Of a stretch of 64,000 bases of DNA, positions 1-64,000 are shown in pieces (the first letter of the stretch is position 1; each line of letters begins with the position of its first letter). The translations under genes and the position numbers were made by a program. Below the pieces are notes generated by a model that was not told the origin of the DNA, made no database searches, and saw nothing but the letters and a program-made list of their open reading frames with translations. Source of the stretch: an uncultured virus (IMG/VR IMGVR_UViG_3300033141_005858) (Duplodnaviria > Heunggongvirae > Uroviricota > Caudoviricetes); the IMG/VR virus record IMGVR_UViG_3300033141_005858; one strand, given 5' to 3'.

Positions 1-49
1 TTGACAAATAGAGTCTCTTAAACAGTTGCATTGCATTGACTCTTATCTC

Positions 50-77
50 GTTTATGTTGTTCATGGAGTCTATGACA
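50..77. repeat. 28-bp inverted repeat, left arm (partner 596-623)
   Basis: GTTTATGTTGTTCATGGAGTCTATGACA matches the reverse complement of 596-623 at 27/28 positions. Confidence 0.9.
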
Positions 78-98
78 AAACTAAAAAGGATAGACAAA

Positions 99-446
99 AT
101 GACACAAAAACAAAATAACAAAAATGAAGAGAGTATATCTCTTAACTCTATTGCTGGAGCTAGTGGAGCTAGCTTTGACACAATAGTCAAGGATATTAAA
201 GAACTTGGTGAATTACGGCTAGCCGATATAAAAAGCTATAAAGATAAGGTTATAGCAGATTATAGAGGCAAAGGAAAACACTTGTTTTTTGTACAAGGTA
301 AAACTAGAAATTGGAGTGTTGGGGCTACTTCTCTTAAAAGACTAGAAAAAGAAACAGGTATGCAGGCAGTGATGGACAAAAGCTTGCTAGACAAATTTCT
401 GAATAGCAAGCATATTGTACTTTACAGGAACGCCAAAACAGAATAA
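99..446 (+). CDS. Hypothetical protein (plus-strand cluster)
   Basis: ORF 36..446; the ATG at 99 follows an AAGGA RBS and is the more likely start. Confidence 0.7.
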   Translation: MTQKQNNKNEESISLNSIAGASGASFDTIVKDIKELGELRLADIKSYKDKVIADYRGKGKHLFFVQGKTRNWSVGATSLKRLEKETGMQAVMDKSLLDKFLNSKHIVLYRNAKTE

Positions 447-574
447 TGTCAATAATACCTTTTTTGCTTATGGTGTTATTGCTAGGATTTATTGGAGTTA
501 TGGATTATCTTTTTATTGCAGTGATTCGAATAATTCTTTCAGTACAGAATTATCTTCACAAAATGAAAAGATAA
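446..574 (+). CDS. Small hydrophobic protein (42 aa)
   Basis: TAATG overlap with the upstream ORF; MSIIPFLLMVLLLGFIGVMDYLFIAVIRIILSV... Not in the ORF track (too short). Confidence 0.5.
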   Translation: MSIIPFLLMVLLLGFIGVMDYLFIAVIRIILSVQNYLHKMKR

Positions 575-595
575 AATTCAATCTATAGCTTCACA

Positions 596-623
596 TGTCA
601 TAGACTCCATTAACAACATAAAC
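596..623. repeat. 28-bp inverted repeat, right arm
   Basis: TGTCATAGACTCCATTAACAACATAAAC. Confidence 0.9.
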
Positions 624-643
624 AAAAAACAGGAGCATATATC

Positions 644-835
644 ATGAAACAGACTAACAAAGAATTAATCGAAACAATTAATGTCTTGAAACAGGTCAAT
701 TCTCTAGAAAAAGAAGTTAATGAATTACGAACTCTTTTGAATGAAAAAGAAAAAGAACTCGATAGACAAAAAACTCTGTTATGCATGCGATTGCAAAAGT
801 ACTACTACATAAGAGATATTCTTAATGACTACTAA
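644..835 (+). CDS. Small coiled-coil hypothetical protein
   Basis: AGGAG RBS at 631-635; heptad-rich sequence. Confidence 0.7.
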   Translation: MKQTNKELIETINVLKQVNSLEKEVNELRTLLNEKEKELDRQKTLLCMRLQKYYYIRDILNDY

Positions 836-861
836 AGATAATTATTGTTTTGGTTAAAAAG

Positions 862-910
862 ACAAAAAAGCATAATTTGAGTTTAATTGCTTAAATTATG
901 CTTTTTTTGT
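862..910. terminator. Bidirectional rho-independent terminator
   Basis: ACAAAAAAGCATAATTTGAG-loop-CTTAAATTATGCTTTTTTTGT hairpin with A/T tracts on both sides, just after the plus-strand genes. Confidence 0.8.
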
Positions 911-924
911 TTATTCTAAAAATA

Positions 925-958
925 TGGCATGAATTTTGCATATGCAAGAATTGTGCCA
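925..958. promoter_or_regulatory. Two face-to-face sigma54 (-24/-12) consensus sites
   Basis: Plus strand 925-940 TGGCATGAATTTTGCA; minus strand 958-943 TGGCACAATTCTTGCA. Both have exact GG-N10-GC spacing. Confidence 0.7.
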
Positions 959-1249
959 AATTAATCCGAGTAAATCGATCGGGTAAATAACTTCTAAATT
1001 AATAATTATTCTAAATTAAAAATAATTCTAAATAAGCCCCGACCTGCCAAACCCTATTTCCGCCCCTTTTGCCACCCGAAACCAATCTACCTACCAGCCA
1101 ACCTACCCACGTCTGCAACCTCTATATTAAAAGAAAAAACAACCTACCCATCCAACCCTATTTCCGACCTCTATGCCGCGAGAAACCATAACCATTTCTC
1201 AAAATGGTTAAAATATCCAGTGAAAATTCATACCTCCAACCCCCTTTGT

Positions 1250-1636
1250 TAACCTACCTCCCACCATGTAACCTACCTCCTCGATATCCAGTGAGAAAAT
1301 GGTGGTTTTTTCTTCAGTAACCTACCGTATCTTGGGTAACCTACCTTGGTAACCTACCACATGTCGTGTAACCTACCTCCATACACACCTAGGGTTAAAC
1401 TAACCACATCCAGAAGCGAATTGGTAACCTACCAGTGCATGTAAGTTGTTGATAAGGTTGAGTTTATGCATACCCAGCCTGCCTCCCCACCAACCCCCTT
1501 AACTTCTACCCCAGTTATCCTACAACCATCCCCATTCTTTACACCAGCTTAGAACCATTCTAAATTAAAAACTGGTGTAACTTAATAACCACTATAACTA
1601 CCCCCCTCTACACTACCTACCACTATATAACCTACC
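1250..1636. repeat. Iteron-like TAACCTACC repeats (8 exact copies) in a non-coding region
   Basis: Copies start at 1250, 1269, 1318, 1337, 1350, 1369, 1425 and 1628. ATATCCAGTGA also occurs twice. Confidence 0.85.
1442..1454 (-). promoter_or_regulatory. IHF-consensus site
   Basis: Reverse complement TATCAACAACTTA fits WATCAANNNNTTR. Confidence 0.5.
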
Positions 1637-1809
1637 TCTACCTACTACCTCCCCTTTATATATAACCACATACCTTGTATGCTAAACCATTACTCTATAC
1701 CATGCTATAGTAAACCTAGATATATTTGTATAAAAGAATACCTCTACCATATACTTGACCAAAGAAAGTAAACCCTGTAACCCCCTCTTTGCAGGTAATC
1801 CATAAAATC

Positions 1810-1968
1810 TCATTTCTTCCCCCAATCCATATTTAAAAGCTCTGCTCCTGCCCACATAAAACATAAGGTGAATACCAGTAACCAAAAAAGTCTACCTTCT
1901 TGTATGCTTATAACTATGGATACCCCACAAAAGACTTCCAGTATACCAAACATAAACTTTTCTGCCAT
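1810..1968 (-). CDS. Small membrane protein (52 aa)
   Basis: AAGGAGG RBS; MAEKFMFGILEVFCGVSIVISIQEGRLFWLLVFTLCFMWAG... Not in the ORF track. Confidence 0.55.
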   Translation of the reverse strand: MAEKFMFGILEVFCGVSIVISIQEGRLFWLLVFTLCFMWAGAELLNMDWGKK

Positions 1969-2016
1969 TTTCAATCCCTCCTTTGCTCAGACCCCAAAAT
2001 TTCATTCTTTCTCTCT

Positions 2017-2044
2017 TTCCATCTCAGAGTCCTTAAACTTTTTT
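2017..2044. repeat. 28-bp dispersed direct repeat (partner 17675-17702)
   Basis: TTCCAT(C/T)TCAGAGTCCTTAAACTTTTTT, 27/28 identical. Confidence 0.85.
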
Positions 2045-2051
2045 CCACTCT

Positions 2052-2354
2052 TCATTCCTTAAACTTCTCAACCCCAAACATTTTTCCAGCTCCCCCAGCC
2101 TTGCACCAAAGCTCTACCTTTTCCTCCGAACCCCAACAACCTATAGGTAACTCATTAAGAACAAACATAACCCAATCATGAATATGTGCCTGATTCACTT
2201 CATCTGCCCTCGTTATAGCCCCTACAAGATCATTCTTCAACACAGCAGTTAAAAACCCTCCAGGACGAACCCCTCTCTCTACATATAACCGCATCCCATA
2301 TCTCATATGTTTAGGTATCCTTAAATAATTAATACCATATGTACTTTCCGTCAT
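2052..2354 (-). CDS. Conserved phage hypothetical protein
   Basis: IPxHM...PGGFLTAVLxNDL...A...AD...P..CWGS.EKV..W pattern, recalled as a widespread phage family. Confidence 0.75.
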   Translation of the reverse strand: MTESTYGINYLRIPKHMRYGMRLYVERGVRPGGFLTAVLKNDLVGAITRADEVNQAHIHDWVMFVLNELPIGCWGSEEKVELWCKAGGAGKMFGVEKFKE

Positions 2355-2671
2355 CTTTCTCCTCCTAAACGCTTTCTTTTTCCATTCATTACATCATATG
2401 AATAATTAATCATTTCTTTAATGAAATCACAAGCCTCCTTCCCAAAAACTTCCAATATATAATCATGCAAACTTCTTCCCTCCTTCATCTCATAACCCTT
2501 CGCGGAAGAAAGCCAACTTTCAAACCCCAATAAATCAAAATCATAAACACCACAAGCCAAAGTCACCATACTAAAAAAAGAGTTATGTACCCCAAAATGT
2601 TTCTTAAACCCTTTCTTTATTTCAGTAACTTCTGCCACCAACATATTATGCCCTTTATTTTTCTCTTTCAT
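2351..2671 (-). CDS. Hypothetical protein
   Basis: ORF overlapping its neighbours; codon usage like the rest of the genome. Confidence 0.7.
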   Translation of the reverse strand: MKEKNKGHNMLVAEVTEIKKGFKKHFGVHNSFFSMVTLACGVYDFDLLGFESWLSSAKGYEMKEGRSLHDYILEVFGKEACDFIKEMINYSYDVMNGKRKRLGGER

Positions 2672-2843
2672 CTTTTAAACCTCCAACAGGAAAAGTACCT
2701 GCCTCTATTTTTCTTAAAATGTTCTTACCTCCACACTCATCTGTCCCGCGCATAGGACAATCTTGACATGCAGATATCCCCCAAAACTGAACCAACCAAC
2801 AATCTGAAGTCAGACCACTTTGCTTAATAACCTTTGTCTTCAT
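2655..2843 (-). CDS. Small Cys-containing hypothetical protein
   Basis: C..CxxC..CGG; RBS present. Confidence 0.65.
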   Translation of the reverse strand: MKTKVIKQSGLTSDCWLVQFWGISACQDCPMRGTDECGGKNILRKIEAGTFPVGGLKDEREK

Positions 2844-2857
2844 TTTCCCTCCCTTCT

Positions 2858-3100
2858 TTATTCAAAAAACTTATCCCATTCATGACTAAACCTATCTAAA
2901 AGCTTCTTTGACCCAAATTCCTTTGCTGCAAGAATTAAAACATCAATTAACCCTTCATAAAAAATCGAATATTCCTTATCCAAACACTGATCCTCTTTAT
3001 TCCAGATCCTTAAAAAAATAAGGTCAATACCTCCCATTTTAGAAAACTCCACAGTTTCTTTCTCTGCACCATCCTCATATAAAACATATTCTTTCTTCAT
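2858..3100 (-). CDS. Hypothetical protein
   Basis: ATGA overlap with the upstream gene. Confidence 0.65.
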   Translation of the reverse strand: MKKEYVLYEDGAEKETVEFSKMGGIDLIFLRIWNKEDQCLDKEYSIFYEGLIDVLILAAKEFGSKKLLDRFSHEWDKFFE

Positions 3101-3531
3101 TTCCCTGCCTCCTCGACTTCCTTCGGAATAAAAATTTCATCTGCCACAATTACTTCTGCATCACAGTAATTACCACCAACTACCCTAGCCTTTCGATACT
3201 TCACTTTCACACATTTTACATCACCTCTTGATAACTCAACAAAATCTGCAACCTCAGCATCCTTCTTCCTTTTGTAAATATGCCATCCTGAAAAATAAAA
3301 ATCCGAAGAACCCCTACATTTAATTTTAAAATCAGTATTAGCCAATAACCACACTCCTTTTGGTCTTTTTTCATGACTAATAAAAGGGTTACTACTAACA
3401 AGCATACAACCAGCACTCCAGGAATAAACAAAAAAACCATAAAGATTTCCTGATGAGTCTACCCTAAAAGTCTTATAACCTTCTCCAGATCTACCTTTAG
3501 GAAATTTCTCATAAATTGAAACTAAACACAT
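3097..3531 (-). CDS. Phage hypothetical protein (MCL family; paralog of 14436..14885)
   Basis: MCL start; GYK, Y..G[WF]H.Y and VKVKYRK...VA.EI motifs. Confidence 0.75.
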   Translation of the reverse strand: MCLVSIYEKFPKGRSGEGYKTFRVDSSGNLYGFFVYSWSAGCMLVSSNPFISHEKRPKGVWLLANTDFKIKCRGSSDFYFSGWHIYKRKKDAEVADFVELSRGDVKCVKVKYRKARVVGGNYCDAEVIVADEIFIPKEVEEAGK

Positions 3532-3532
3532 A

Positions 3533-3874
3533 TCAACCTCCTAACTTTTTAATTATCTTAAACTCACCAACATAAAAGTCCTCTCTTGCTTCTTCCCGCC
3601 GAATAACTTCATATTTATCATCAAACACCATAACACCATCATAACCAACTAAACCAATATCTTCATCAGCATAACGAATATTCAAATAACAACTTCCTAC
3701 AGCTAAATCCTTTTCTGGTATAAATTTACACTCTTCCGTAATATCCAGACCCTCTTCCTCTTCTTCAAAAACTTCCGGAAATAACGTTTCTAAAACCTCT
3801 GCCGCCTCCTCACACTCCTTAGCCGCTAATAAAACTCGATCCTTGCGTATTTTTAATTCCTCTTTACCTTTCAT
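3533..3874 (-). CDS. Hypothetical protein
   Basis: AGGAGG RBS; acidic protein. Confidence 0.7.
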   Translation of the reverse strand: MKGKEELKIRKDRVLLAAKECEEAAEVLETLFPEVFEEEEEGLDITEECKFIPEKDLAVGSCYLNIRYADEDIGLVGYDGVMVFDDKYEVIRREEAREDFYVGEFKIIKKLGG

Positions 3875-13527: not shown

Positions 13528-13528
13528 C

Positions 13529-14443: not shown

Positions 14444-14885
14444 GACAAACCTCCTCTATTATTTTTATTTCTTTAGCCACATCAACAAAATAACAGCCTT
14501 CTTCAACCCCACTAGCTACACACTTTCTATACAAAACCTTCACTATACAAACCGAGAATTTCCTATTATTAACTTCGGCTGGATAAGACCGCTTAAACTT
14601 AACCTGTGCATCCCTTAAAAGAGTATAAACATGAAAACCATACAAGTAATGCCCACAAGAATCCACACCAACACTAGTTAAATATCTTTTACCAGCATCC
14701 CCAGCACATCTATAATCTCCCTCTCTTAACCAAACACCTTTTTTAAGAAATTGAGAACATAAATCGCTTCTCCAATAAGAACAATAAAAATCATCTACTT
14801 TAAGAACTACCTTATATCCAATCTGCACATCTTCATAACCAGGGCTGCCTTTCTTATACACTCTTTCAATATTACTCAAACACAT
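14436..14885 (-). CDS. Phage hypothetical protein (MCL family; paralog of 3097..3531)
   Basis: MCL, GYKV, Y..GFH.Y and VKV.YRK motifs. Confidence 0.75.
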   Translation of the reverse strand: MCLSNIERVYKKGSPGYEDVQIGYKVVLKVDDFYCSYWRSDLCSQFLKKGVWLREGDYRCAGDAGKRYLTSVGVDSCGHYLYGFHVYTLLRDAQVKFKRSYPAEVNNRKFSVCIVKVLYRKCVASGVEEGCYFVDVAKEIKIIEEVCHE

Positions 14886-15042
14886 ATCAAACCTCCCTCC
14901 TGTTAATTAAAAAGACTACAAAGTATATCCCACAAAATAAACACCCAAAAGATAATAGCAATCTTTCCAAAAACAAAAAGAAATGTTGAAACTAAACCAT
15001 CCTCCTCACTTTTAATTCTTCTTGTTTCATCTGAATCCTTCA

Positions 15043-15372
15043 TCACTTTACCGCCTCTTCAATCCTTAATTCATCTTTCTCTGGACGCTCTGCCTTCTGA
15101 AGTAACCGCTCCACATAAGCCGCCCCCTTAACCTTAATAAGCTCTTCTTTCCAACGAATGCTTGCTCTCCCAGTAGCCCTCTCTATTAAAGCAATCAAAC
15201 GACCGCGCTCTACCTTTTCACCTTTTTTCAGCCTCTCTAATATCTCTGCTCTTTTGTCTTTTACCAAAGCCTCTGCTAAATTAAGTTTCTTTTTCTTTTC
15301 CTTTAAAGCTTCTTCATACTTAACCAACTTTTCCAATAAATTTTGTTTAATCATAATAAATCTCCTCCTCAA
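15043..15372 (-). CDS. Hypothetical coiled-coil protein
   Basis: ORF in the operon; true start probably the internal MIKQ. Confidence 0.65.
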   Translation of the reverse strand: MRRRFIMIKQNLLEKLVKYEEALKEKKKKLNLAEALVKDKRAEILERLKKGEKVERGRLIALIERATGRASIRWKEELIKVKGAAYVERLLQKAERPEKDELRIEEAVK

Positions 15373-15670
15373 TACTTTGCTTCATTAAACGCAACCATTT
15401 AAGATAACTCCTCGGAAGAAACCCATACTTCCTAAACCAGGAATCTACTTTATTGAAAGACCGCTGAGCCTCTAACGACAAATCCCGATAAAACCCACGA
15501 ACTTCATCTAAACGCTTCTTGTGTGACCTAGTTAATGCTCGAATCCTTCTTCGCTGCCTTAAATCAGCATTCTTAATAATATCCTCAATCTTTTCGGCTG
15601 CCCAATGCTTACCCGTATTCCTTACTCGCTCTCTTTTAGTTTGTTCAGCTACTGCTGCCAAACTAATCAT
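15347..15670 (-). CDS. Basic hypothetical protein
   Basis: AAGGAGG RBS. Confidence 0.7.
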   Translation of the reverse strand: MISLAAVAEQTKRERVRNTGKHWAAEKIEDIIKNADLRQRRRIRALTRSHKKRLDEVRGFYRDLSLEAQRSFNKVDSWFRKYGFLPRSYLKWLRLMKQSIEEEIYYD

Positions 15671-15700
15671 TTTAATACCTCCTTTCTTTTAACCCTTAAC

Positions 15701-15991
15701 TCAATCCCGCACATAAACAGTTTCTATACCAGTAATAAAATAAACTGGTTCAACTAACCAGACCCAATCAGGAGTCAAGTTATCAAGAGCCCAAGCCTGT
15801 GCTGACCTGCTAGTTCTAAAAACTAAAAGTTTACCAACACAAACACTAATATAACCAGCAGGATCAACCTCATCACCCTCATAAGGAAGCTGAGCCCTGA
15901 TAGCCCAATACTGATTCACCTTACCCACTCTTCCCAACTCTCCTGTCTCTGAACTACCAACATTTTGCTTATTTGTTTTTTCATTTACCAT
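15701..15991 (-). CDS. Hypothetical protein
   Basis: AGGAGG RBS. Confidence 0.65.
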   Translation of the reverse strand: MVNEKTNKQNVGSSETGELGRVGKVNQYWAIRAQLPYEGDEVDPAGYISVCVGKLLVFRTSRSAQAWALDNLTPDWVWLVEPVYFITGIETVYVRD

Positions 15992-16017
15992 TTTTTCCTC
16001 CTATCATAAATTTACCA

Positions 16018-16239
16018 TTATTTAGGCACGGATTTAATACGACCTTGATCGATTCGTGCCAAACACTTTTGACCTTTCCTATAACCACAAAGATTACAAT
16101 TAACCACTTCTGCTCCATCCTTATTAACAATTTCAGAGTGGTCAAACCTCGGACAATCTTTTACATAACTTTTCATTTTAATATCTCCTTTATTTATTTT
16201 TATTTTGCCTGGACATAGCAAATATCCCCATAACCTCAA
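16018..16239 (-). CDS. Small Cys-containing hypothetical protein
   Basis: C..CxxC..C; true start likely the internal MKSY. Confidence 0.55.
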   Translation of the reverse strand: MRLWGYLLCPGKIKINKGDIKMKSYVKDCPRFDHSEIVNKDGAEVVNCNLCGYRKGQKCLARIDQGRIKSVPK

Positions 16240-16312
16240 TTCTCCCTTCTTATTAAATAAAAGGATTCAATAATGTTTATCTTATAGTATAACATTATAT
16301 ATAGGGGGAAAT

Positions 16313-16492
16313 TCATTTGCCCGACTCTTCCAAAACTTCCAAAGCTTTCCTTAAAGCCCCTTCACTCTGCAAAGAATAAATAGGAAAATTACACCGGTCT
16401 ACCCTTATATCCTTTGCTAACCGATTAGCTTCTGCGATATCCAGATTATACCTTTTCTGGATAACTGCCCGCACTTGCCGATGTGAAAGCAT
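16313..16492 (-). CDS. First gene of the early operon (59 aa)
   Basis: AAGGAG RBS; MLSHRQVRAVIQKRYNLDIAEANRLAKD... Not in the ORF track. Confidence 0.6.
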   Translation of the reverse strand: MLSHRQVRAVIQKRYNLDIAEANRLAKDIRVDRCNFPIYSLQSEGALRKALEVLEESGK

Positions 16493-16546
16493 TTAACCTT
16501 CTCCTTCCGTTTGTTTATTTTGACTTGTTTTATTCATTCTATTTAT

Positions 16547-16575
16547 AATATAGGATAATATGGAGTACTTGTCAA
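16547..16575 (-). promoter_or_regulatory. Sigma70-type promoter for the early gene cluster
   Basis: TTGACA-17 nt-TATATT. Confidence 0.8.
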
Positions 16576-16579
16576 CTCT

Positions 16580-16606
16580 GTAAGTGCTTGAAAATAAAGG
16601 ACTTAC
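16580..16606. promoter_or_regulatory. Palindromic IHF-like site
   Basis: GTAAGTGCTTGAAAATAAAGGACTTAC, immediately upstream of the -35 box. Confidence 0.45.
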
Positions 16607-16839
16607 GGCTAATTTTTAGCAGAACTAAAAAAAGAGCTTTTACCACTTTGACCCCTCAAGCTTCATGACCAAAAAACTCCCACAAACCTTTTTGAAAAAT
16701 TAACCTGAAACTCCAGTTAACCCTTAATTGAACCAACCAACACATAAACCATCCAACCCACCAACGATCTAACCAACCTTTCCAAATTAACCTCTATTTC
16801 CCGCTTCAAAGTCCCCCAGAATCCAACCCAAAAATCTAC

Positions 16840-16954: not shown

Positions 16955-17644
16955 TTAATATTCTACAAATCTAAACCCTAATAAAGCTTCTCTGGCTTCT
17001 CTTTTAAACCTACCAAAATCTTCCCAGCTTTTATGGTAATTTTTTACCATTCTTTTCGATTCAAAAAACCAATCTTTTACCTTATCTATAAGTTCAATAT
17101 CTAATTCATTAACCCCGGATACATAACCATCAAAAAACTCCCATCTCCAATCAATAAAATACCCAATTTCTCTCCAGTGAGGTAAAGATTGATAAAATGT
17201 TATAAAATCTTTAGCTATTCTTAATATTAATTTTCTATAGAAAAAACTTTTATTCTCTTTATTTACTCCTCTAGACCAACTCCTCAGCTTCGGCAGAACC
17301 TCATTAAGCTCTTCTTGATGGTACTTTATATTACTTATCTTGCAAAGCTTCGTTACCGCCCGTTTAAAGCTCTTGTTTTCTTTTGCTTGAATAAATTTTA
17401 TGGCTCCACCAACCCATTGGCACCCAAAACAATAACCATAATTGTTTTTAACCCAAAAAGATGCTTTTGTTTCATGGTGAAAAGGACATTGAATAAAAAA
17501 ACTATCTTTTTTCGAAAATCTAATTCCATAATAATCTAATACCTTTATAAAAGGTACTGAAACTATCTTTTCATATAAACTATTATGTTTAACCGAAATC
17601 ATTTTCGACTTCCAGTTCGATGCTTTTGAAATAAAATTTGGCAT
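16955..17644 (-). CDS. CHC2 zinc-finger (primase Zn-binding domain) protein without TOPRIM
   Basis: CPFH.E...SF.......CFGC motif; no TOPRIM DxD region follows. Confidence 0.85.
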   Translation of the reverse strand: MPNFISKASNWKSKMISVKHNSLYEKIVSVPFIKVLDYYGIRFSKKDSFFIQCPFHHETKASFWVKNNYGYCFGCQWVGGAIKFIQAKENKSFKRAVTKLCKISNIKYHQEELNEVLPKLRSWSRGVNKENKSFFYRKLILRIAKDFITFYQSLPHWREIGYFIDWRWEFFDGYVSGVNELDIELIDKVKDWFFESKRMVKNYHKSWEDFGRFKREAREALLGFRFVEY

Positions 17645-17674
17645 GGGATATTTTTTAAAAAATTAGTTTTTAGA

Positions 17675-17702
17675 TTCCATTTCAGAGTCCTTAAACTTTT
17701 TT
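17675..17702. repeat. 28-bp dispersed direct repeat, copy 2
   Basis: See 2017-2044. Confidence 0.85.
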
Positions 17703-17704
17703 TG

Positions 17705-19087
17705 TTAATCAAATTCCTCTAAAACCTCAGACCCAAACTCATACATATGCTGATGAGCAAAATCCGCTTTAAGCTTAAAAACTATATTTGCATTTCCATC
17801 TCGTAACTTTAAAACTTCTCCCTTAATATCATTCGGAGAATCTGTATCAGCCCAAAGTGCAAAAATCACATCACTTAAACGCTCAGCTTCAGAAGTACTG
17901 GCTAAACCAGAAAGACTTGCCCTCCTCTCTCCACGAGGTCTCTCCTGTGCCTGTTTCAACTCTTCTCTCGTAAGATGATGAGGAGAAATAACAGGTACTC
18001 CTCTATTTGCATGTGTCCTTGCAATTGTCTTAGCCCCCTTCATCAAATCAGCCTTCTCTGCAAAATCTGCCCTCCTTCTAATCGTTGGAACCATGTTTCG
18101 AATATCATCTAAAAGCACAACATCTACCTTAAAACGAGTCTCATATTCTAAAAGCTTCCCTGAAAGCCAATCCATAGTCGCCTTCGCCGGAGCTTGAACA
18201 AGCATCAGCCTCCCATGATCTCCTTTCTTTAAAAACTCTTTTAATTGTAAAAGAGTCTTCCGTTCTTCCTCACTAAGATCTCCACTTTTAAATTTTTTTG
18301 TGGTTATCGGAGTTTTAAATAAAGACTCTACCGTCAACCTACTATAAATTCTTCGCCTTAATTGTGACCTTTTTGTCTCTGTTGTAACATAAACAACATT
18401 CTTCTTTTGATTCAATATCAAATGTACTGCAATATTAACCAAAAGTGTTGTCTTACCACAACCCGGACCTCCCGCAATTAAACAAAGCTCTCCACCCTCC
18501 AAACCCAAAATTTCATTATCTAACTTTGGAATTCCAAAATTAATAGGTCTAAATTGAGCGGCTTTCGACTTTGCTTTAGCCACCTCTTCAATAAAGTTAC
18601 CAATATCCTCCTCTAATTCCCCCTCTTGAGCCTCATCAATGGAAGCTCCCTCCAAATTAGCCAGTTCTTTTAATACATAATTTTTCGCTTTCCCAAAACT
18701 TCCCTCTGCCAACGTTTTATCAGCTTCTTCTAATAATTTACTAAACTTATACTCTTTATATAACTCCTCAACTCTACCCACATACCAAACAAACTCAGCC
18801 TTATCCACATCATCAGAAACTTCCTTTAAATCATCTACAGCTTTCTCTAAAAGAAAAATCCTATCCTCACTCACCTTCTTAGCTCTCAAAAACCTACGCA
18901 ATTGCTTAACTTTAAGTAAACCACCAGAATCTTTATAATAAAGATTTAAAAGATTCCATAAAGCCTTTAAAGGATTATAAAAATATTTTGACCTTAAACG
19001 ATTCCGCGCAATATAAAAATCTGAAAGTTCTGCTTTATAAAAAAGATAACCAATAACCGCTCTCTGTGCTTCTTCTTGCGTATACAT
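17705..19087 (-). CDS. dnaB: DnaB-like replicative helicase
   Basis: Walker A GGPGCGKTT, YVTTE, VVLLDD and KLRDG motifs. Confidence 0.9.
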   Translation of the reverse strand: MYTQEEAQRAVIGYLFYKAELSDFYIARNRLRSKYFYNPLKALWNLLNLYYKDSGGLLKVKQLRRFLRAKKVSEDRIFLLEKAVDDLKEVSDDVDKAEFVWYVGRVEELYKEYKFSKLLEEADKTLAEGSFGKAKNYVLKELANLEGASIDEAQEGELEEDIGNFIEEVAKAKSKAAQFRPINFGIPKLDNEILGLEGGELCLIAGGPGCGKTTLLVNIAVHLILNQKKNVVYVTTETKRSQLRRRIYSRLTVESLFKTPITTKKFKSGDLSEEERKTLLQLKEFLKKGDHGRLMLVQAPAKATMDWLSGKLLEYETRFKVDVVLLDDIRNMVPTIRRRADFAEKADLMKGAKTIARTHANRGVPVISPHHLTREELKQAQERPRGERRASLSGLASTSEAERLSDVIFALWADTDSPNDIKGEVLKLRDGNANIVFKLKADFAHQHMYEFGSEVLEEFD

Positions 19088-20593
19088 TTATTCCCTCACC
19101 AAAGAAGCTAACTCAATAGCATCTAATTTCGGAAATGCATCTGACCGCTCACCCCATAACTCATCAGTCAAAGCACTCTCATACTTTAACCTCTCCCAAA
19201 GCCTCTCCTCAATGGTACCCCGACACAATAAAGGATAGACAACAACATTCTTATTAATACTCCCTAACCTCCGAACTCTTCCAATTAATTGAATCATCCT
19301 CTGCGAATTTAATATTAAATTAACTAAAATTAAATATCTAGCCGACTGCAAATTTAAACCGGTCTCCGCAGTACCAGTCACTATTAAAATATTACATTGG
19401 TTTGTATCCTGAAACTTCCTCCGCACTCTCTCATGTAACTTTTTAGATTCTCCTCCTAACATAACACCATAATCATATCTTCCCATCTTCTTCAATCTCT
19501 TCTTAATCAAATCAACAGTTTTCCGATAAAAAGAATAAATAACAACCTTTTCATCCCCCAGCTTATCATCAATAAACTGCTCTATTGCATCTAATTTACA
19601 AGATTCATCTGTCTCTAAACCTGCCTGAGCAGTACTAGCACACACTTGAATCATTGAATGAAATCCTTTATTTACAATATCTTTAATGACTCCCTTATCC
19701 AACTCCTTAATAATTCTCTTTCTCAATTGCCCATAAATGCTCTTTTGCTTTGGTGATAGATCTAACCAAACCGGTTTAAGTATCAATTTAGGCAATTGCT
19801 CCCCAACCTGTTTAAACGTCCTCTTAATAAAAAATGGATATAACTTCTTCTGCAACTCTCGCTTATTCCGCATCCCAATTTCTTCTCTCTTCCAAAACTT
19901 TCTCCCATCCTTTCTCGTGATCTGAGTCTTCCTAACAATACAATAACGATTCTCAAAACCAATCTTAGTCCCAAAAACTTTATTCAAACCTAATGCCTCT
20001 AATAAAGAATGTAAATCGAGAAGTGATTTTTGTTTTGGTGTCGCGGTAGCTAAAACTACCCGTTTAGCCCCCGCAGTAAGATTCTTTATAATTTCTGCTG
20101 TTTTAGTATTATGATTCCTAAAAAAATGAGCATCGTCCATAACCCAACACTTCACATTTAAGTCTCGTATTAACTTCCAATCTCTCCATAAAATCTGATA
20201 GGATATTATAAGCACCTTCCACATTTTACTAATATAATATTGTACCCGCTCTCTTGAATCTCCTACCCCCAACGCCACATCAATATCTGAAAATTTCTTA
20301 AACTCTGAATCCCACTGATATAAAGTTGAAGGGGGAGCCACAACAATCCACCTCCCTTCTTCCTTACCAAGAAACTCTAAAAGCTGAATCAACCCAATAA
20401 CCTGAGCAGTCTTACCAAGCCCTGTAGAATCAGCTAATATCGCCTTCTTTGCCGCTGCCAAAAACAATACCCCCCGAACTTGAAAAGGATATAAAGAAAG
20501 TTTCAAACCAAAATCCCCAATCTTCCGAATAATCTGGTCCTGAGTAAACTCTTCAGAATATCTTTTAATTTTAACAGCTTTTCTATAAGACAC
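19088..20593 (-). CDS. SNF2-family helicase/translocase
   Basis: LYPFQ, ILADSTGLGKT, DDAH, ATATP, GLNLQ.A and Q..GRVRRLG motifs. Start moved to the GTG at 20593 after GAGGAAGGA. Confidence 0.92.
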   Translation of the reverse strand: MSYRKAVKIKRYSEEFTQDQIIRKIGDFGLKLSLYPFQVRGVLFLAAAKKAILADSTGLGKTAQVIGLIQLLEFLGKEEGRWIVVAPPSTLYQWDSEFKKFSDIDVALGVGDSRERVQYYISKMWKVLIISYQILWRDWKLIRDLNVKCWVMDDAHFFRNHNTKTAEIIKNLTAGAKRVVLATATPKQKSLLDLHSLLEALGLNKVFGTKIGFENRYCIVRKTQITRKDGRKFWKREEIGMRNKRELQKKLYPFFIKRTFKQVGEQLPKLILKPVWLDLSPKQKSIYGQLRKRIIKELDKGVIKDIVNKGFHSMIQVCASTAQAGLETDESCKLDAIEQFIDDKLGDEKVVIYSFYRKTVDLIKKRLKKMGRYDYGVMLGGESKKLHERVRRKFQDTNQCNILIVTGTAETGLNLQSARYLILVNLILNSQRMIQLIGRVRRLGSINKNVVVYPLLCRGTIEERLWERLKYESALTDELWGERSDAFPKLDAIELASLVRE

Positions 20594-20616
20594 AGAATCC
20601 TTCCTCTTTAAATTTT

Positions 20617-20759
20617 TGATCCGCTTCAAAGCGATGGGTTTCTAGCTCATTTTGGCTCACTTTTTTTAAATGGGTTTCTAGCTCGCTTCGATATGATGGG
20701 TTTCTTAGAAGAGATGGCTCACTTAAATATTATGGGCTCCTTTCAATCCATGGCTCGCG
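20617..20759 (-). ncRNA. TIGR-like dual-repeat guide RNA array (4 units, 36-nt period)
   Basis: Alternating 9-nt repeats AG(C/T)GAGCCA and AGAAACCCA separated by unique 9-nt spacers; one unit has a 10-nt deletion. Confidence 0.8.
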
Positions 20760-20768
20760 TTTTCTTCT

Positions 20769-20801
20769 ATTATATATACCCACCCCAGACACTTTCTGCA
20801 A
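20769..20801 (-). promoter_or_regulatory. Putative sigma70 promoter upstream of the TIGR-like array
   Basis: TTGCAG-17 nt-TATATA, with an overlapping TATAAT about 10 nt before the first repeat. Confidence 0.55.
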
Positions 20802-20807
20802 TTTCAT

Positions 20808-21110
20808 TCATAAAAGCAACTTGATAATGATCCCAATTAAAGACGCAGTTAAAGGAAGCAGGCTCCATTTTATCCACCTTACTACCCTTTTCATATCCTT
20901 AACATCACTAGGGATCTGTTCAAACTTTAACAAAAGTTTATTTTGATCTTCACACAACTTCTTTTGTAAATCAACCGATTCTTCAATTTTATCTGCAACC
21001 TTATCCAATTTCATAGAAATTTTAGCATTGGCTTTTAATTGCTCTGAAAATAAATCAAGCAGAATCCCATTCCTTATACCAACATCTGAATCTTCACTGT
21101 ATTTATCCAT
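20808..21110 (-). CDS. Coiled-coil protein with C-terminal TM helix (holin/XhlA-like candidate)
   Basis: Coiled coil followed by WIKWSLLPLTASLIGIIIKLLL; lies at the end of the tail operon. Confidence 0.55.
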   Translation of the reverse strand: MDKYSEDSDVGIRNGILLDLFSEQLKANAKISMKLDKVADKIEESVDLQKKLCEDQNKLLLKFEQIPSDVKDMKRVVRWIKWSLLPLTASLIGIIIKLLL

Positions 21111-21121
21111 TTTCTACCCTT

Positions 21122-22369
21122 TCAAATCGTATCTTTATATTTCTGAACCACAGCACAAGGAACATTAAGATTAATAACCGAAAGATCATACTTCCAGCCA
21201 TTCTCAGCCCCTGGTAACCTAAGTTCATCTGTTCTATGACCATACATAAGCTCTAACCCAAAATTCTGATCTATTATAATTTGATTGATTAATCTTAAAG
21301 CTTCTGCTTTCTTCATCAAAAACTTCTTACCCCCTATCCTTGACCCATCACTTGAAGCCATAAAACGATTAATTGGTATTTGATTTTTAAGTTCATTATA
21401 TTTTTCTAAACTTGCTACATGATGAAGCTGATAAAGACACTTCTCTTCAATCCCTAAAGGCAAAGCAGAATAAGGCAAGGCACTTCCTATCATCTGCCAG
21501 CGATACATCTTTACACCGGGTGTTATTTTTTGGATCTCTTCATTCACAATTTCACATATCCTATCATGCCATTCTTTTACCGGTGGTACCTCATTACCAG
21601 GGTTAAACCCCAATGATGTATTCCACCCAGGTCTCTTATACTTTACTTCTTCTTGCCAAATAATACGCACCACATATCTAGTAAATTTTTCAACATATTT
21701 AAAACTTTCTGAACATATATCAAAAGCTTTTTGAGGCTTATCATCAATCTGTTTAAGCCAATGAGTACCCCAAGAAGCATTGTCTCTATAATGCATCTGA
21801 CAAAAATCCCAAAGACCAATCGACCTAAATATCTCCCGTTCTCTTAGTATCTCCAGTCTTTCCAAAAGTAACCGCTTCCAGGTAGGATTAATATAATCCT
21901 CTATATCTTCATTAAGACTTGGTAAAAGATATACACCATGCTCGTTTTTAAGAAAAGGCTTTTCAATCCAAACTTCAAATTTTCCAGCCCAAGATGTATG
22001 ACCAATAAAAACTCTAGTCCCAGTACAAGCATCCTTCTCAGCAACCCGATCCCAAAATTTAACAGCTTCTTTCTTTGACAATTGTGCTTCTCTCACATAC
22101 AAAAATTCAGGAAAGAAAACTGTAAAAAGATAAGTAGGATAACCCTGCCTCTGCATAGAAGCAATCGGACGTACTTCTTCACTTATCTTAGGAACCTCTA
22201 TCCCAGGTTCTGGCAAAGGTGGTTCTGGTTCAACAGGTACTGGTTTATTTTTAGGTTTATGCAAATGTAAAAATACTATAACAACAAAAAGAACCGCACA
22301 AATAATTATCAATACCATATTATACCTCCTTCCAAACTCCAGAAACTTTGACATATACTTTTTCAACAC
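21122..22369 (-). CDS. Membrane-anchored glycoside-hydrolase-like TIM barrel (endolysin candidate)
   Basis: N-terminal TM helix, Pro-rich linker, GNE motif resembling the clan GH-A acid/base; lysis-cassette position. Confidence 0.5.
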   Translation of the reverse strand: MLKKYMSKFLEFGRRYNMVLIIICAVLFVVIVFLHLHKPKNKPVPVEPEPPLPEPGIEVPKISEEVRPIASMQRQGYPTYLFTVFFPEFLYVREAQLSKKEAVKFWDRVAEKDACTGTRVFIGHTSWAGKFEVWIEKPFLKNEHGVYLLPSLNEDIEDYINPTWKRLLLERLEILREREIFRSIGLWDFCQMHYRDNASWGTHWLKQIDDKPQKAFDICSESFKYVEKFTRYVVRIIWQEEVKYKRPGWNTSLGFNPGNEVPPVKEWHDRICEIVNEEIQKITPGVKMYRWQMIGSALPYSALPLGIEEKCLYQLHHVASLEKYNELKNQIPINRFMASSDGSRIGGKKFLMKKAEALRLINQIIIDQNFGLELMYGHRTDELRLPGAENGWKYDLSVINLNVPCAVVQKYKDTI

Positions 22370-23039
22370 TTTTCCACACCCCAGAAACCCTAACAGAAGG
22401 AGTACATTTTTTCCAATTTCCTGATACTTTTGCGTATATTTCTGGGGTTACGGCGATTAGCCTAGCACCCGCAGCAGCAAACCTGTTTAGAGTTCCCCAT
22501 GTTATCGTTCCGTTGCCGACTTTTGTATCGCCAACTAAATACCAGGGATTTGATGGACTACAGAAGAACCTCTCTACCTGACCACTTCCTCTTCCGTTTC
22601 GGGGATTGCTATAGCCAGACCAGACAGCCCCCACAGCCCAGTCGTTCGCTCCGACACTCCCTATGCTAAGAGTGCAGTTTGAGCCATCTGGATCACCCTT
22701 ATCAGTAGCTGCGTTACCTATGCCACTGACTCCAGAAAACGACATGCCACCTAATCCTTTCATATTACCCGCTGCACTAAATGTAGCAGAGAGAGATTTC
22801 ACACCAGAAGGTGGTGATAACATGTAAAACATCTTGATTCTTCTCCAAGTTCCCGCCGCCGATGCTATGAGGGTCATATCGACTCCATTAAACTTTGGAA
22901 CCGGAGTGCTTTGATTGTTAGAACCGCAAGTCCACGCTAGAACTATCCTGTTGCTTCCAGAACCCGCATCTAGATTTAATTGTACAGATGCAGAACTATC
23001 GTCTGTTAAACAATCCGCATCAATAATTGATATAGCCAT
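22320..23039 (-). CDS. Tail fibre / receptor-binding protein
   Basis: Gly/Ser-rich beta domain; C-terminal (Y/V)xKVSGxWK repeats typical of phage fibre tips. Confidence 0.75.
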   Translation of the reverse strand: MAISIIDADCLTDDSSASVQLNLDAGSGSNRIVLAWTCGSNNQSTPVPKFNGVDMTLIASAAGTWRRIKMFYMLSPPSGVKSLSATFSAAGNMKGLGGMSFSGVSGIGNAATDKGDPDGSNCTLSIGSVGANDWAVGAVWSGYSNPRNGRGSGQVERFFCSPSNPWYLVGDTKVGNGTITWGTLNRFAAAGARLIAVTPEIYAKVSGNWKKCTPSVRVSGVWKSVEKVYVKVSGVWKEV

Positions 23040-23048
23040 TTTCTATTC

Positions 23049-24659
23049 CTAAGCTGTATATTTCAGCCAAACGTCCCCATCAGAGCCTCCACTAGGATCG
23101 CTTGTACTAATGGTTATTTTCCTATGTCTATCAGATGCGTAATTCACTAATGAATTATGGTCAACTGTATCTGAGCCTCCTGACTGATGACTGCTTGCGT
23201 GAGCCTTAGGAGTCCTCGTTGCTGACTTATCATCAAGCTCCGCATCGCTTATCTTGGAGTTCAGATTTGCCAATGTATCTGCATTATGCTTGTCTCCACC
23301 AAGGTCGTGAGCAATAGGAGTCCTTGGCTCCGACTTATCATCAAGCTCCGCATCGCTTATCTTGGAGTTCAGATTTGCCAATGTATCTGCATTATGCTTG
23401 TCTCCACCAAGGTCATGAGCCGGTATTCCGCCGGTTGCCTCTGCTATCCACCTGCTTGTACTCTCGTCCCAGGATAATACATCATTGTCATTTGGCGTTT
23501 CTGCGTTCACGTCCACCAAATCGCTGAGCTTTGGGGGGAAAGTCGTAGGGAACAATTCCTTATACGCCGACGCAACAGTTAATAGATTTGCTCCAGATTT
23601 TTGAACTACGATTTTTGCAGCCAGGATTCCAAATTCACTGACTAATTCCGGGACAGTGTCAGGAAGCACTGCGTTTTCAGCCTCAGCCAGTTTATAATTT
23701 CCCTGCCCATAAACCACATTTATGTCGCTATCAAAATGGACATAGACCCAGTGGACCCCATAGCGGTTTGTTGTAAGTGTCGCAAGAGCCCCAGAACCAT
23801 CATCATAATGGATATTGTCGATTTGTTGCTGACCTGTGACTTTTGTCCAACCACCCCCACCGTCTCTATACCAGCAGGTAAACCTATCTGCCCCAGACGT
23901 ATCCTGTGCCGAAGTCTCTATCTTATTAAGCCCGAAATAGAAAACGCCGGCACCAGAGGTCAGGTATCTCTGTCCGGTCTCTGATATTTCCCCGCCAGAA
24001 GCACGCTCGAACCCTCTGACGTTTATCAGCCTTTCGTGTTCGTTGTATGCTAGTTCAGTTAACCTAATCCCATAACTTAGGATATGAAGTGTCGTCCCTT
24101 CTCTATAGACTTTACCCAGGATAAATTCTGTCCGCCCATCAAGCGTAGTTCTATCGATCGTCACTCCTATAACGGGGGAACCACCATTATAATTCATATA
24201 AACATAATTTATCTTACTGTCAGTTAAGGCTATTCCCGTATCAGCGTCCCAATCAAACGATTTTGTCAGCCCTGTAGGTGAGTCAGTCGTTTTTATAAAC
24301 CCAGTCCCTGCTGCCACGTCTATTGTCCCGTTATGTGCTGCGTTCTCTGTTATCTCCCCGCCAGAGATACGCCCAGCAGATTGTATGATATTCAGCCAAT
24401 CTTGGAGATCATCATAAGTCGGTGTTGTTCCTATGCTTTCTATTGAAATGTCATCAGCACTTATATTAAACAAACTATTACTCAATTCACCAAAACGATT
24501 AGTTAAAACCGGCTTTAATTTATCTTCCACCCCACGAGATCTTCGTATAAAATCCTTTTTTAAGAAGAAAAAGTTCTCTCCTCTATGTGCCAAATTAGCA
24601 GGCTGTGAGGCATGTTTATTGAACTTCTCAAAATCTGCAAATTTCTGTTTCTTAGCCAT
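23049..24659 (-). CDS. Tail fibre protein
   Basis: LSDLVDVN...VLSWD....W motif, AHASSH..GGSD motif, PSGGSDGDVW end, internal duplication. Confidence 0.8.
   Translation of the reverse strand: MAKKQKFADFEKFNKHASQPANLAHRGENFFFLKKDFIRRSRGVEDKLKPVLTNRFGELSNSLFNISADDISIESIGTTPTYDDLQDWLNIIQSAGRISGGEITENAAHNGTIDVAAGTGFIKTTDSPTGLTKSFDWDADTGIALTDSKINYVYMNYNGGSPVIGVTIDRTTLDGRTEFILGKVYREGTTLHILSYGIRLTELAYNEHERLINVRGFERASGGEISETGQRYLTSGAGVFYFGLNKIETSAQDTSGADRFTCWYRDGGGGWTKVTGQQQIDNIHYDDGSGALATLTTNRYGVHWVYVHFDSDINVVYGQGNYKLAEAENAVLPDTVPELVSEFGILAAKIVVQKSGANLLTVASAYKELFPTTFPPKLSDLVDVNAETPNDNDVLSWDESTSRWIAEATGGIPAHDLGGDKHNADTLANLNSKISDAELDDKSEPRTPIAHDLGGDKHNADTLANLNSKISDAELDDKSATRTPKAHASSHQSGGSDTVDHNSLVNYASDRHRKITISTSDPSGGSDGDVWLKYTA
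23224..23420. repeat. 89-bp tandem duplication (108-nt period) in the tail fibre gene
   Basis: 23224-23312 vs 23332-23420, 1 mismatch; encodes AHDLGGDKHNADTLANLNSKISDAELDDKS twice. Confidence 0.95.
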
Positions 24660-24669
24660 CTAAAATCTC

Positions 24670-26070
24670 CTAAACCATACAAACCCCACCTTTCTTTATT
24701 TGGCTATTATCTCGCAAAGATAACTTACCTAAATCAGCTAAAATATCCAAAGCCACACTTACTTCTATCCTAGTCAAGCGACAATAATTTGGCATCACTA
24801 GCTTTCGACTACCCATCAACTTGGCATAAGTAGCATTACAACCCTTCATACAAAATTGCCGAGCCATACAATCATCACAATCAAACCCTTCTCTAACATC
24901 TCCTCTTACCTGACGCCTTTCTAAAGACCGAGTCTTAAATAATGTAAATTCATCCCAACCATTCCAAACATCCCCCATCGCCCATTTATCTGGATTATTG
25001 TAACTACCATAACGTTGGCATGCATATAACTTCCCTCTCCAATCAATAGAAGCACTATTCCAAGCAACCCCACACATTCTACCTTCCGGAGGATTAGGGC
25101 TCCTCAATTGACTTAAAACAGTATTAAGGAATTTAAGATTAATATTTACACCACTTCTCTGAGCATATTTATAATACTCTCCTAGCTTCTCTAAAAGATG
25201 CCGGTAATCCATTAATTGTTTCTCCGACCAATCAGTTTCAAAATCTGGCTCTATTGCAATTGACTTAAAACCTTTATTCCTTAAAAACCTAAAATCATCA
25301 AACCAATCACCTACAGTTTCCGGAGTTATTGTAGGTCGGATCTCAATATTAGGAAACCTAGACAAAATCTCATCTACTGGAATATCATCAAAAGAACCTT
25401 TACCATCTTTATAAATTCGATTCAAATCATGCGTCTCTTTTCTCCCGTCAATACTCAAAAGAAAAGGATTCCTTGAATTAAAATTCTTCTCTATCCAATC
25501 CAGACGCTCTGTATTTAATAAAGTACCATTCGTGGTCATCCCCCAACCCACACTCACTCCGTTCTTTTTAGCTAATTGATTTCCAATATTAACGATATCC
25601 TCCAATTGACTCCATCTTGTAGTTGGCTCTCCCCCAAAAAAATGACACTTTATATTTTTATGGGGTTGAATTTCAAATAACCACTTCAACATTTGATGCA
25701 TCGTTTCTTTAGACATATTCCCAGGGTTGGTTGTAGCATAACAATACCTGCAAGCTAAATTACATCCACTAGTATGATGAATAAAATACACCATCGGCAT
25801 CCCCCCGCCGCTCTTCTTTTGACCCGCTGTCACATCGCTACCAACTCCCTGTTGGCAAGTATAACAATTCCTACAAAGTTCCATTAAAGTTTTTTTCTTT
25901 TTTTCAATACCCTTCTGCCTCATATCATTTACAGTCACACCCCCATCAACTCCCTGTTGACAAGTATAACAATTCCTACACAAACTTTCTTTATTATCTT
26001 TCTTATTGTCTCCTCCATAACTAACTTCACAAGTATAACAATTTTTACATATTTCCTTCTTTTTATCCAT
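24670..26070 (-). CDS. Radical SAM/SPASM peptide/protein maturase with N-terminal CxxCxxC repeats
   Basis: CNLACRYC, FFGGEP, TTNGTLL and LSIDG motifs; SPASM CG...G.LYAC and CxxCx5Cx3C...C. Start moved to the ATG at 26070 after AGGAG. Confidence 0.93.
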   Translation of the reverse strand: MDKKKEICKNCYTCEVSYGGDNKKDNKESLCRNCYTCQQGVDGGVTVNDMRQKGIEKKKKTLMELCRNCYTCQQGVGSDVTAGQKKSGGGMPMVYFIHHTSGCNLACRYCYATTNPGNMSKETMHQMLKWLFEIQPHKNIKCHFFGGEPTTRWSQLEDIVNIGNQLAKKNGVSVGWGMTTNGTLLNTERLDWIEKNFNSRNPFLLSIDGRKETHDLNRIYKDGKGSFDDIPVDEILSRFPNIEIRPTITPETVGDWFDDFRFLRNKGFKSIAIEPDFETDWSEKQLMDYRHLLEKLGEYYKYAQRSGVNINLKFLNTVLSQLRSPNPPEGRMCGVAWNSASIDWRGKLYACQRYGSYNNPDKWAMGDVWNGWDEFTLFKTRSLERRQVRGDVREGFDCDDCMARQFCMKGCNATYAKLMGSRKLVMPNYCRLTRIEVSVALDILADLGKLSLRDNSQIKKGGVCMV

Positions 26071-26081
26071 TACACTCTCCT

Positions 26082-26861: not shown

Positions 26862-26889
26862 TTTAAATTCCTTTATTCATTATAATATC

Positions 26890-63082: not shown

Positions 63083-63783
63083 AATTGATCCTTAATTAAA
63101 TTCTTCCGGTAAACTGCCATGTACTCTAAAACAACTTCTCTGATTTTAAGATCCGGAACTGTAAATAACTTCGAAAGAAGCCGGTTAGGATTAATTTCTT
63201 CTGTCCGCTTAAATATAGGCAAATGCTGAGCTTTCCCTAACCTACTAGAAACATGTAAAATCTTTGTGTATGGAATAAAGCTTCTTAAAAAAGTATAATT
63301 TGACACCCCTGTATCCAAATGAGAAAAATCAATACATAAACCTAAAAAATCTCCTTCTAAATACTTCCCATACTTCCCCACCGCATAAACAGGATCTGCC
63401 AATGAATTTCTTTTTCTACTTTTTGCAGGAAAGTTCTCTAAGCATAAAGTATACAATCCATTATTAACAACGGTTTCCACAACTTCATCCATCTCATATA
63501 TCCAAGGATGAATAACAAATAAATCCACATTAAACATTTCGCTTAAATTAGTAACCACCCCATCAGGTCGAAAATCAAGTGCTCCTAATCCATTAGGCAA
63601 ATGAATAGATGTTATGTTATCCTCATAATCTCCTATCAAACTCGGAGCCAAATCCAAATCATTTCTCGCATGAAAACTCAAATGCACATTAAAATCATAA
63701 CTATCTATTACAGATTTTACAAACTGTACATCTGCTTCATCCTTCACAAACACACCCACACTTGGCTTCATTTTATTTTTCAT
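63031..63783 (-). CDS. Xylose-isomerase/AP-endonuclease-2-like TIM barrel protein
   Basis: SIHLP, VIHP, LEN, CIDFSH, LHVS, QHLP and VLEY motifs. Confidence 0.75.
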   Translation of the reverse strand: MKNKMKPSVGVFVKDEADVQFVKSVIDSYDFNVHLSFHARNDLDLAPSLIGDYEDNITSIHLPNGLGALDFRPDGVVTNLSEMFNVDLFVIHPWIYEMDEVVETVVNNGLYTLCLENFPAKSRKRNSLADPVYAVGKYGKYLEGDFLGLCIDFSHLDTGVSNYTFLRSFIPYTKILHVSSRLGKAQHLPIFKRTEEINPNRLLSKLFTVPDLKIREVVLEYMAVYRKNLIKDQFWLIQYMQQKRKKFGDV

Positions 63784-63979
63784 GGAACTTCCTCCTCCAA
63801 GCTTCGTCTATCTCATTAATAGCTCGTTTAATATTTACTTCTCCCGGAAGTATTATTCTCCTTTGTGCTTTCTGCCGCCCTTCCATCACAGCCCCAAACA
63901 TATCCTCAACAAATTTAACTACCCTTTCCTTATTTACGGTCTGCTGAACCCGCTCAAACTGCTCATCCGTAATCTGCAA
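63773..63979 (-). CDS. Hypothetical protein
   Basis: ORF with a GAGG RBS. Confidence 0.55.
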   Translation of the reverse strand: MQITDEQFERVQQTVNKERVVKFVEDMFGAVMEGRQKAQRRIILPGEVNIKRAINEIDEAWRRKFHEK

Positions 63980-64000
63980 AGCCTCTAACCAATCAATATA

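Follow-up and report, generated by a model that had tools for sequence, protein, structure and literature searches.

A short dual-repeat TIGR array far from tasH, probably part of a phage's own TIGR-TasH system

Which protein, if any, uses a guide array that has no recognizable effector gene nearby? The question is raised by a short tandem-spacer array at positions 20617..20759 (minus strand) of a 64,000-nt stretch of DNA, referred to here as the window, from an uncultured virus of the Caudoviricetes (IMG/VR record IMGVR_UViG_3300033141_005858). A sequence-only reading had likened the array to TIGR arrays, saw no Nop-domain, Tas, or IS110-like gene in the window, and left it open whether the array is an orphan, acts in trans, is a decoy, or serves a different effector.

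On re-reading, the coordinates and the minus-strand orientation given for the array were exact, and two alternating repeats, mostly ending in CCA, with a 36-nt period were found as described. The array has a length of 3.5 units, in which the edge repeat AG[C/T]GAGCCA alternates with the loop repeat AGAAACCCA around spacers of 8 to 9 nt. Along the minus strand, it opens with the first edge, CGCGAGCCA (20751..20759), which by the edge/loop criteria of TIGRFinder has a CGAG gap with pairable C..G ends. A spacer (20750-20742), a variant first loop that deviates at two positions (AGGAGCCCA, 20741-20733), and another spacer (20732-20724) follow. Next come the edge AGTGAGCCA (20723-20715), a spacer (20714-20706), the loop AGAAACCCA with the gap AAAC (20705-20697), and a spacer (20696-20688). 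Unit 3 is broken (20680..20687): a cut-off edge, AGCGAGC (20687-20681), and a single T lead directly into the loop AGAAACCCA (20679-20671) and its spacer (20670-20662). The array ends with a second copy of the edge AGTGAGCCA (20661-20653), a spacer (20652-20644), the loop AGAAACCCA (20643-20635), a last spacer (20634-20626), and a degenerate last edge, AGCGGATCA (20625-20617). Unit 3 lacks box C and spacer A; the gap of ∼10 nt corresponds to CA plus 8 nt of this spacer, presumably lost through a deletion, and makes the unit, 10 nt shorter, the exception to the 18/36-nt period. A 14-mer of unit 3, GAGCTAGAAACCCA, is found again in unit 4. Three tigRNA units (1, 2, and 4) are intact.

The elements that characterize dual-repeat TIGR arrays are present. 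Seven of the nine repeats end in box C (CCA), and eight of the nine start with box D (AG), in both repeat types, the exception being the first edge with CG. In the TIGRFinder register, seven CCA-N9-AG intervals are in phase, with 4-nt gaps between them. Edge-type gaps are CGAG or TGAG, whose terminal bases (C-G or U-G) are able to pair, and loop-type gaps are the A-rich AAAC in three of four cases and GAGC in the first loop; an edge gap with pairable terminal bases and an A-rich loop gap are among the criteria in the method text of TIGRFinder, and TasR arrays have been described with an A-rich loop gap (PMC12045711). The two alternating repeats are distinct, 9 to 10 nt long and separated by 8- to 9-nt spacers (8- to 12-nt repeats and spacers of up to 12 nt are allowed), and the boxes C and D covary between edge and loop.

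Chance does not explain this pattern. With up to 2 mismatches, AGNGAGCCA-N9-AGNANCCCA has three matches in the window, all within the array; 100 dinucleotide shuffles of the window averaged 0.04, and none of them reached three. Chains of at least three in-phase CCA-N9-AG intervals occur at three sites in the closed 81,412-nt genome described below (the array and two sites beside tasH), while 50 mononucleotide shuffles gave a mean of 0.08 chains. Two other readings of the array RNA were tried and rejected: a known RNA family (0 Rfam matches at E ≤ 1) and a structured leader or attenuator (minimum free energy of −34.9 kcal/mol, z = +0.48 relative to shuffles, thus no better folding). Both results fit a published remark that dual-repeat TIGR arrays are without extended structure (PMC12045711).

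To place the repeats in a family, public sequence collections were queried for the exact pair with its register kept (AGYGAGCCA-N9-AGAAACCCA-N9-AG). It is present in >142 viral contig stretches and, among contigs of prokaryotic genomes, in 53 stretches, with Saccharibacteria, other CPR bacteria, archaea, and Dehalococcoidia represented; often it recurs many times per contig, at multiples of 36 nt. Among the matches listed, 163 ORFs of at least 150 amino acids lie within 400 nt of arrays, and 59 of them form one BLAST cluster of proteins of ∼240 to 350 amino acids, nearly all encoded on the array strand. One cluster member matched TasH in the PDB (21kl_A) with an E value of 5e-65 and a second PDB chain, named IS116/IS110/IS902 transposase C-terminal domain, with an E value of 1.9e-10; Pfam Transposase_20 was matched by all six members tested (E ≤ 7e-3). 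A Tas profile was then built from 55 of the 59 proteins, without two short fragments, an ORF on the opposite strand, and a long outlier. Among the matches listed, it was matched in 69 of 96 groups and not in the other 27, where a group consists of loci merged by identical array units and has at least 3 kb of DNA (55 groups with <3 kb were left out).

The array also shares its edge repeat with the experimentally studied TasH array of Salicola phage CGphi29. Because the repeat pair lies beside Tas genes elsewhere and the edge is identical to that of CGphi29, the array is, as judged by its sequence, a TasH-type dual-repeat TIGR array. The TIGR edge/loop architecture proposed for it has therefore held up: the repeat pair is common to dozens of Tas-linked arrays, and the edge is that of the SpTasH array, which is proven to work with a Tas protein. 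In comparison with SpTIGR/SpTasH of CGphi29 (NC_020844; PMC12045711, PMC13421893), the edge AAGCGAGCCA is identical and the 36-nt unit, 10-nt repeats, 8-nt spacers, CCA as box C, and AG as box D in both repeats are alike, whereas the loop is AAGAAACCCA here and AAGACAACCA in CGphi29. With the dual-repeat TasR and TasA systems (TaTasR, ParTasR, and FpTasA), as they are described in PMC12045711, the array shares the alternating edge and loop, dual 9-nt spacers, 36-nt tigRNAs, the pairing edge gap, and the A-rich loop gap; unlike these systems, which have a UG box D and an effector with RuvC or no nuclease, it has AG as box D and an effector with HNH.

No such effector is encoded in the window itself, and the array is not adjacent to a tas gene. 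Pfam found no Nop, IS110, or HNH family among the 73 ORFs of the window. The 55-protein Tas profile, run against the six-frame translation with all filters off and every open frame of at least 30 amino acids included, found no Tas in the window (best E = 0.24). Three unannotated proteins encoded upstream (415, 100, and 239 amino acids) gave nothing Tas-like in PDB sequence searches. The absence noted from the sequence was thus confirmed for the 64 kb.

The last ORF of the window is a 100% match (tblastn) to the first bases of a second record, IMGVR_UViG_3300033148_010261 (G001). DNA comparison revealed that window positions 63401..64000 are 100% identical to G001 bases 1-600 and that positions 1..3674 are 100% identical to G001 bases 18013-21686 (3,674 nt). 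Since G001 overlaps both window ends without a mismatch, the two assemblies join into an 81,412-bp map that is circular (or permuted); the linkage between the array and tasH reported below rests on this second assembly overlapping both ends and not on one continuous record. The CheckV completeness of the 21,686-nt G001, 27%, agrees with 81,412 bp, and the GC contents are 36.5% for the window and 36.2% for G001.

A tasH gene of 316 codons lies on the minus strand of G001 (4709-5656), 4.1 to 5.1 kb beyond the right end of the window. Its product matches SpTasH with an E value of 1.1e-89 and is 47.5% identical to it over 99% of the length (tblastn), aligning to SpTasH residues 4-308. A Tyr and a His of the G001 protein align with Y289 and H296 of SpTasH, which are described as the residues that catalyze the autonomous processing of pre-tigRNA (PMC13421893). 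Pfam recognized Transposase_20 (3.4e-7) and HNH (5.8e-4; 20.4 bits, just under the cutoff of 21.4), and the sequence is consistent with the layout of TasH, with a predicted N-terminal HNH domain, a central coiled coil, and a C-terminal Nop-like domain that includes the Tyr/His dyad. The cognate Tas protein is thus encoded in the same genome as the mini-array, at a distance of 47.3 kb along the window or 33 kb around the circle.

tasH has an array on either side, one of 9 and one of 10 intervals, with edge and loop repeats as in the mini-array, and is followed on G001 by a DNA polymerase A gene. Degeneracy is as marked in the repeats beside tasH (e.g., AGCGAGTCA, AGAAGTCCA, and AGACGACCA) as in those of the mini-array, and the two flanking arrays, which hold ∼9 complete units, share no spacers with the mini-array. 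Both flanking arrays (L018 4529-4704 and 5689-5846) are without a terminator and run into an identical 20-nt stretch containing the ribosome-binding site (RBS) of the next gene, which is tasH itself in one case and the DNA polymerase A gene in the other. The downstream array starts at the tasH stop codon, and in the upstream array, units 1 and 2 nearly duplicate each other, with spacers that differ at 1 and 3 positions. The mini-array ends in a stretch that is similar, but not identical, to the 20-nt RBS stretch. In CGphi29, by contrast, repeats were seen only downstream of tasH, where they end in a terminator hairpin (record part 12895-16815), whereas in this phage tasH lies between two arrays, each leading into the RBS of the next gene, and a third array is 33 to 47 kb away.

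These findings change the status of the mini-array. Its orphan appearance arose because the window edge cuts off the tasH-bearing segment, and a false lead is thereby removed: a cognate tasH and two arrays with the same repeats lie just outside the window, and the mini-array need be neither an orphan nor a decoy, nor serve a different effector. The earlier proposal that an orphan array works in trans with a foreign Tas from the host or a coinfecting phage, or that its RNA is a decoy against such a Tas, could draw on the lack of a tas gene within 33 kb of the array and on the existence of tas-less phage records with this repeat pair (G007 and G006). However, a foreign partner is not needed, because the same genome encodes an intact TasH with its own arrays of the same edge and loop repeats, and we consider this proposal very improbable. 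The mini-array, remote from tasH, is probably a third array belonging to the TIGR-TasH system of the phage itself.

In its genomic setting, the array takes up 143 of the 214 nt that separate the stop of a 100-amino-acid ORF (20808..21110, minus strand; no Pfam family above the cutoff and not Tas-like) from GTG 20593, and it shares its strand with all adjoining genes. It stands at the head of a block of SNF2 helicase, DnaB, and primase genes. Directly downstream is the SNF2-family helicase gene (19088..20593, minus strand; Pfam SNF2-rel_dom, E = 1.7e-36; Helicase_C, E = 1.5e-15), which likely starts at GTG 20593, preceded by a good RBS, AAAGAGGAAGG; the longest ORF, from TTG 20629, would extend into the array. 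The last edge repeat stops 7 nt before this RBS.

This position invites a reading at the DNA level, in which the repeats are iterons or operators at 18-bp spacing ahead of replication helicase genes, e.g., an origin or a repressor array. The regular spacing of the direct repeats and their location immediately before the genes for the SNF2 helicase, DnaB-like helicase, and primase would suit such an element, but the exact repeat pair recurs, with its register, next to Tas genes of dozens of unrelated contigs and in many gene contexts, every copy is on the transcribed strand, and the two-repeat alternation with its box C/box D logic has no counterpart in iterons. We therefore give this explanation almost no weight and return to a transcribed array of the TIGR-TasH system.

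A candidate promoter had been noted ahead of the array, and a −10-like element, GGTATATATAAT (20769..20780, minus strand), is indeed visible 10 to 21 nt upstream of the first edge; however, a scan for consensus sigma-70 sites listed no promoter directly upstream of the array, and GGTATATATAAT is not among its sites. A GGTATAA-like element also precedes the tasH-upstream array and mini-arrays in two other phages, but GGTATAWW occurs 14 times on the array strand of the genome. GGTATATATAAT may act as a weak promoter of the array. A terminator scan of 20400-21000 gave 0 sites, with none after the last edge.

The condition of the array bears on the main rival explanation, decay. Decay is possible because the array is short and has one broken unit, a first loop that is off at two positions, and a degenerate last edge. 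It could then be a remnant, a piece of a TIGR array displaced by rearrangement, perhaps still carried in the leader transcript of the helicase genes but without useful guides. In addition to the 3.5 units, the loss of box C and spacer A from unit 3, and the aberrant AGGAGCCCA and AGCGGATCA, this explanation is favored by the lack of both a terminator and a consensus promoter in our scans and by the 14-mer common to units 3 and 4, which suggests a recombination scar. Typical TIGR arrays, moreover, most frequently have 5 to 15 units (PMC12045711), with a final truncated edge and a rho-independent terminator, and here 3.5 units are followed by the SNF2 RBS. Against decay, three units retain both boxes and are flanked by edges that are complete or half intact, repeat degeneracy is just as great in the arrays beside tasH, and comparable mini-arrays of 1 to 4 units recur in other phages, where they have −10-like elements and terminator hairpins of their own. 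Furthermore, minimal arrays of 1 to 3 units with full edges were processed in published experiments (PMC12045711), and units 1, 2, and 4 possess what those experiments needed. On balance, we consider a decaying remnant unlikely and favor a working third array.

We propose the following course for such an array, with SpTasH as the model for transcription, processing, loading, and targeting (PMC12045711, PMC13421893, and preprint 10.64898/2026.09.09.750476, in the parts that describe its mechanism). The array would be transcribed on the gene strand, either from its own weak −10-like element or through read-through. TasH dimers would recognize an edge and a loop repeat by their boxes C and D, and the Tyr/His dyad of the Nop domain would cut inside the edge repeats, freeing three 36-nt tigRNAs from units 1, 2, and 4. 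Each tigRNA could then steer the HNH domains to a site of 16 to 18 bp, with each spacer pairing with a different strand. In this way, the mini-array would add three guides to those of the ∼9 complete units beside tasH.

We entertain, as a doubtful conjecture, that the distant array is not a spare copy but a separately controlled guide module, in which TasH binding and cutting couple the making of guides to what becomes of the replication mRNA, and that the mini-arrays of 1 to 4 units dispersed over phage genomes, even those in complete genomes without tas such as G007, are used in trans between coinfecting phages that share a TasH type. Cutting by TasH could affect the replication mRNA because the array heads the helicase-primase unit and its last edge lies so close to the SNF2 RBS.

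Small arrays apart from tas were also found in other phages. In G004 and G005, which represent one phage (identical over 20 kb), tas is 12.6 to 13.7 kb from two small arrays. The G004 arrays are located at L028 8728-8867 and about 9996-10050 (L044 corresponds to G005), and this tas gene is the only one in the 91-kb record. In G002, ∼10.9 kb separates an array from a Tas match whose open frame is interrupted by a TGA. All of these arrays, together with those of G007, have the same repeat pair as the mini-array, are short (1 to 8 intervals), and lie kilobases from tas or occur without tas; the 33 to 47 kb reported here is the largest distance among the phages compared.

The G007 record (41,579 nt, with direct terminal repeats and rated 100% complete) contains three mini-arrays of 1.5 to 4 units with the same repeat pair (L016 9940-10130, minus strand; L016 16040-16260, plus strand; L059 9930-10110, plus strand). 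Two of them end in a hairpin plus T run, and one is preceded by GGTATAAT. Neither the Tas profile nor PF02371 had a match in G007 or in G006 (rated 93% complete), while the controls G001 and G004 were positive for both. Thus, in contrast to the phage studied here, which has a cognate tasH, none was detected in G007, and its arrays are candidates for true orphans that are used in trans. In G011, ∼13 array segments lie within 3.3 kb (L012 9965-13238 and L038, one group), and the record, rated 48% complete, has no match to the Tas profile.

CRISPR arrays that lie far from cas genes, and CRISPR mini-arrays carried by phages, likewise rely on an effector encoded elsewhere. The RNA architecture and the protein family are different, and the likeness is an analogy only.

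We searched for targets of the 12 guides in the closed genome, with both half-site orders. No site was found at 0 to 1 mismatches, as is expected for a nuclease-bearing system, and the two sites at 2 mismatches are at about chance level. In 1.78 Mb of other loci, there were no targets at 0 to 1 mismatches, compared with 0.3 to 0.7 for shuffled-spacer controls. In collections of public size, a few chance matches per 18-mer are expected, and the TIGR authors themselves report many false positives in the target searches that they describe. Spacer turnover would be read from close relatives, and none was found by DNA among the INPHARED phages (blastn with positions 17001-25000). The exact 43-nt array string is absent from viral_contigs (IMG/VR) and metagenome_contigs, and in these two collections no relatives were confirmed via the SNF2 or DnaB proteins.

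The system is thus of a known kind with an organizational twist, a third array 33 to 47 kb from tasH, which matters mainly for the cataloguing of TIGR systems. A 2026 paper describes tas genes in proximity to arrays (PMC13421893), and neither our literature search nor word searches in TIGR papers yielded a mention of orphan or remote TIGR arrays. Our findings indicate that TIGR arrays can sit tens of kilobases from tas. Since the published catalogues, as described for TIGRFinder, were built by searching around tas loci, the guide repertoires of TIGR phages may be undercounted; here, 3 of ∼12 complete guides would be missed. Phages that have arrays without tas merit a systematic look.

Several other features of the window were observed. 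Long imperfect tandem repeats with periods of 54, 90, and 144, CA-rich on the plus strand, occupy 26242-27397 inside two minus-strand ORFs (26082-26861 and 26890-29628), which probably encode repetitive tail fiber-like proteins. A pentapeptide-repeat protein is encoded at 10697-11632 (Pfam E = 1.7e-36) and accounts for the 15/30/60-nt tandem repeat at 11312-11554. There are two radical-SAM proteins, one encoded among tail genes (24670-26127) and the other in the replication block (50341-52836); the latter, of 831 amino acids with a Radical_SAM_N2 domain, adjoins UDG and methyltransferase genes, and a role of these proteins in DNA modification is possible. A 185-amino-acid protein with an Imm5-like immunity protein domain (Pfam E = 1.5e-9) is encoded at 12656-13213. 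Finally, a 213-nt stretch at 13006-13215 is 76% identical to G001 16523-16732, so that this genome holds a second copy that has diverged.
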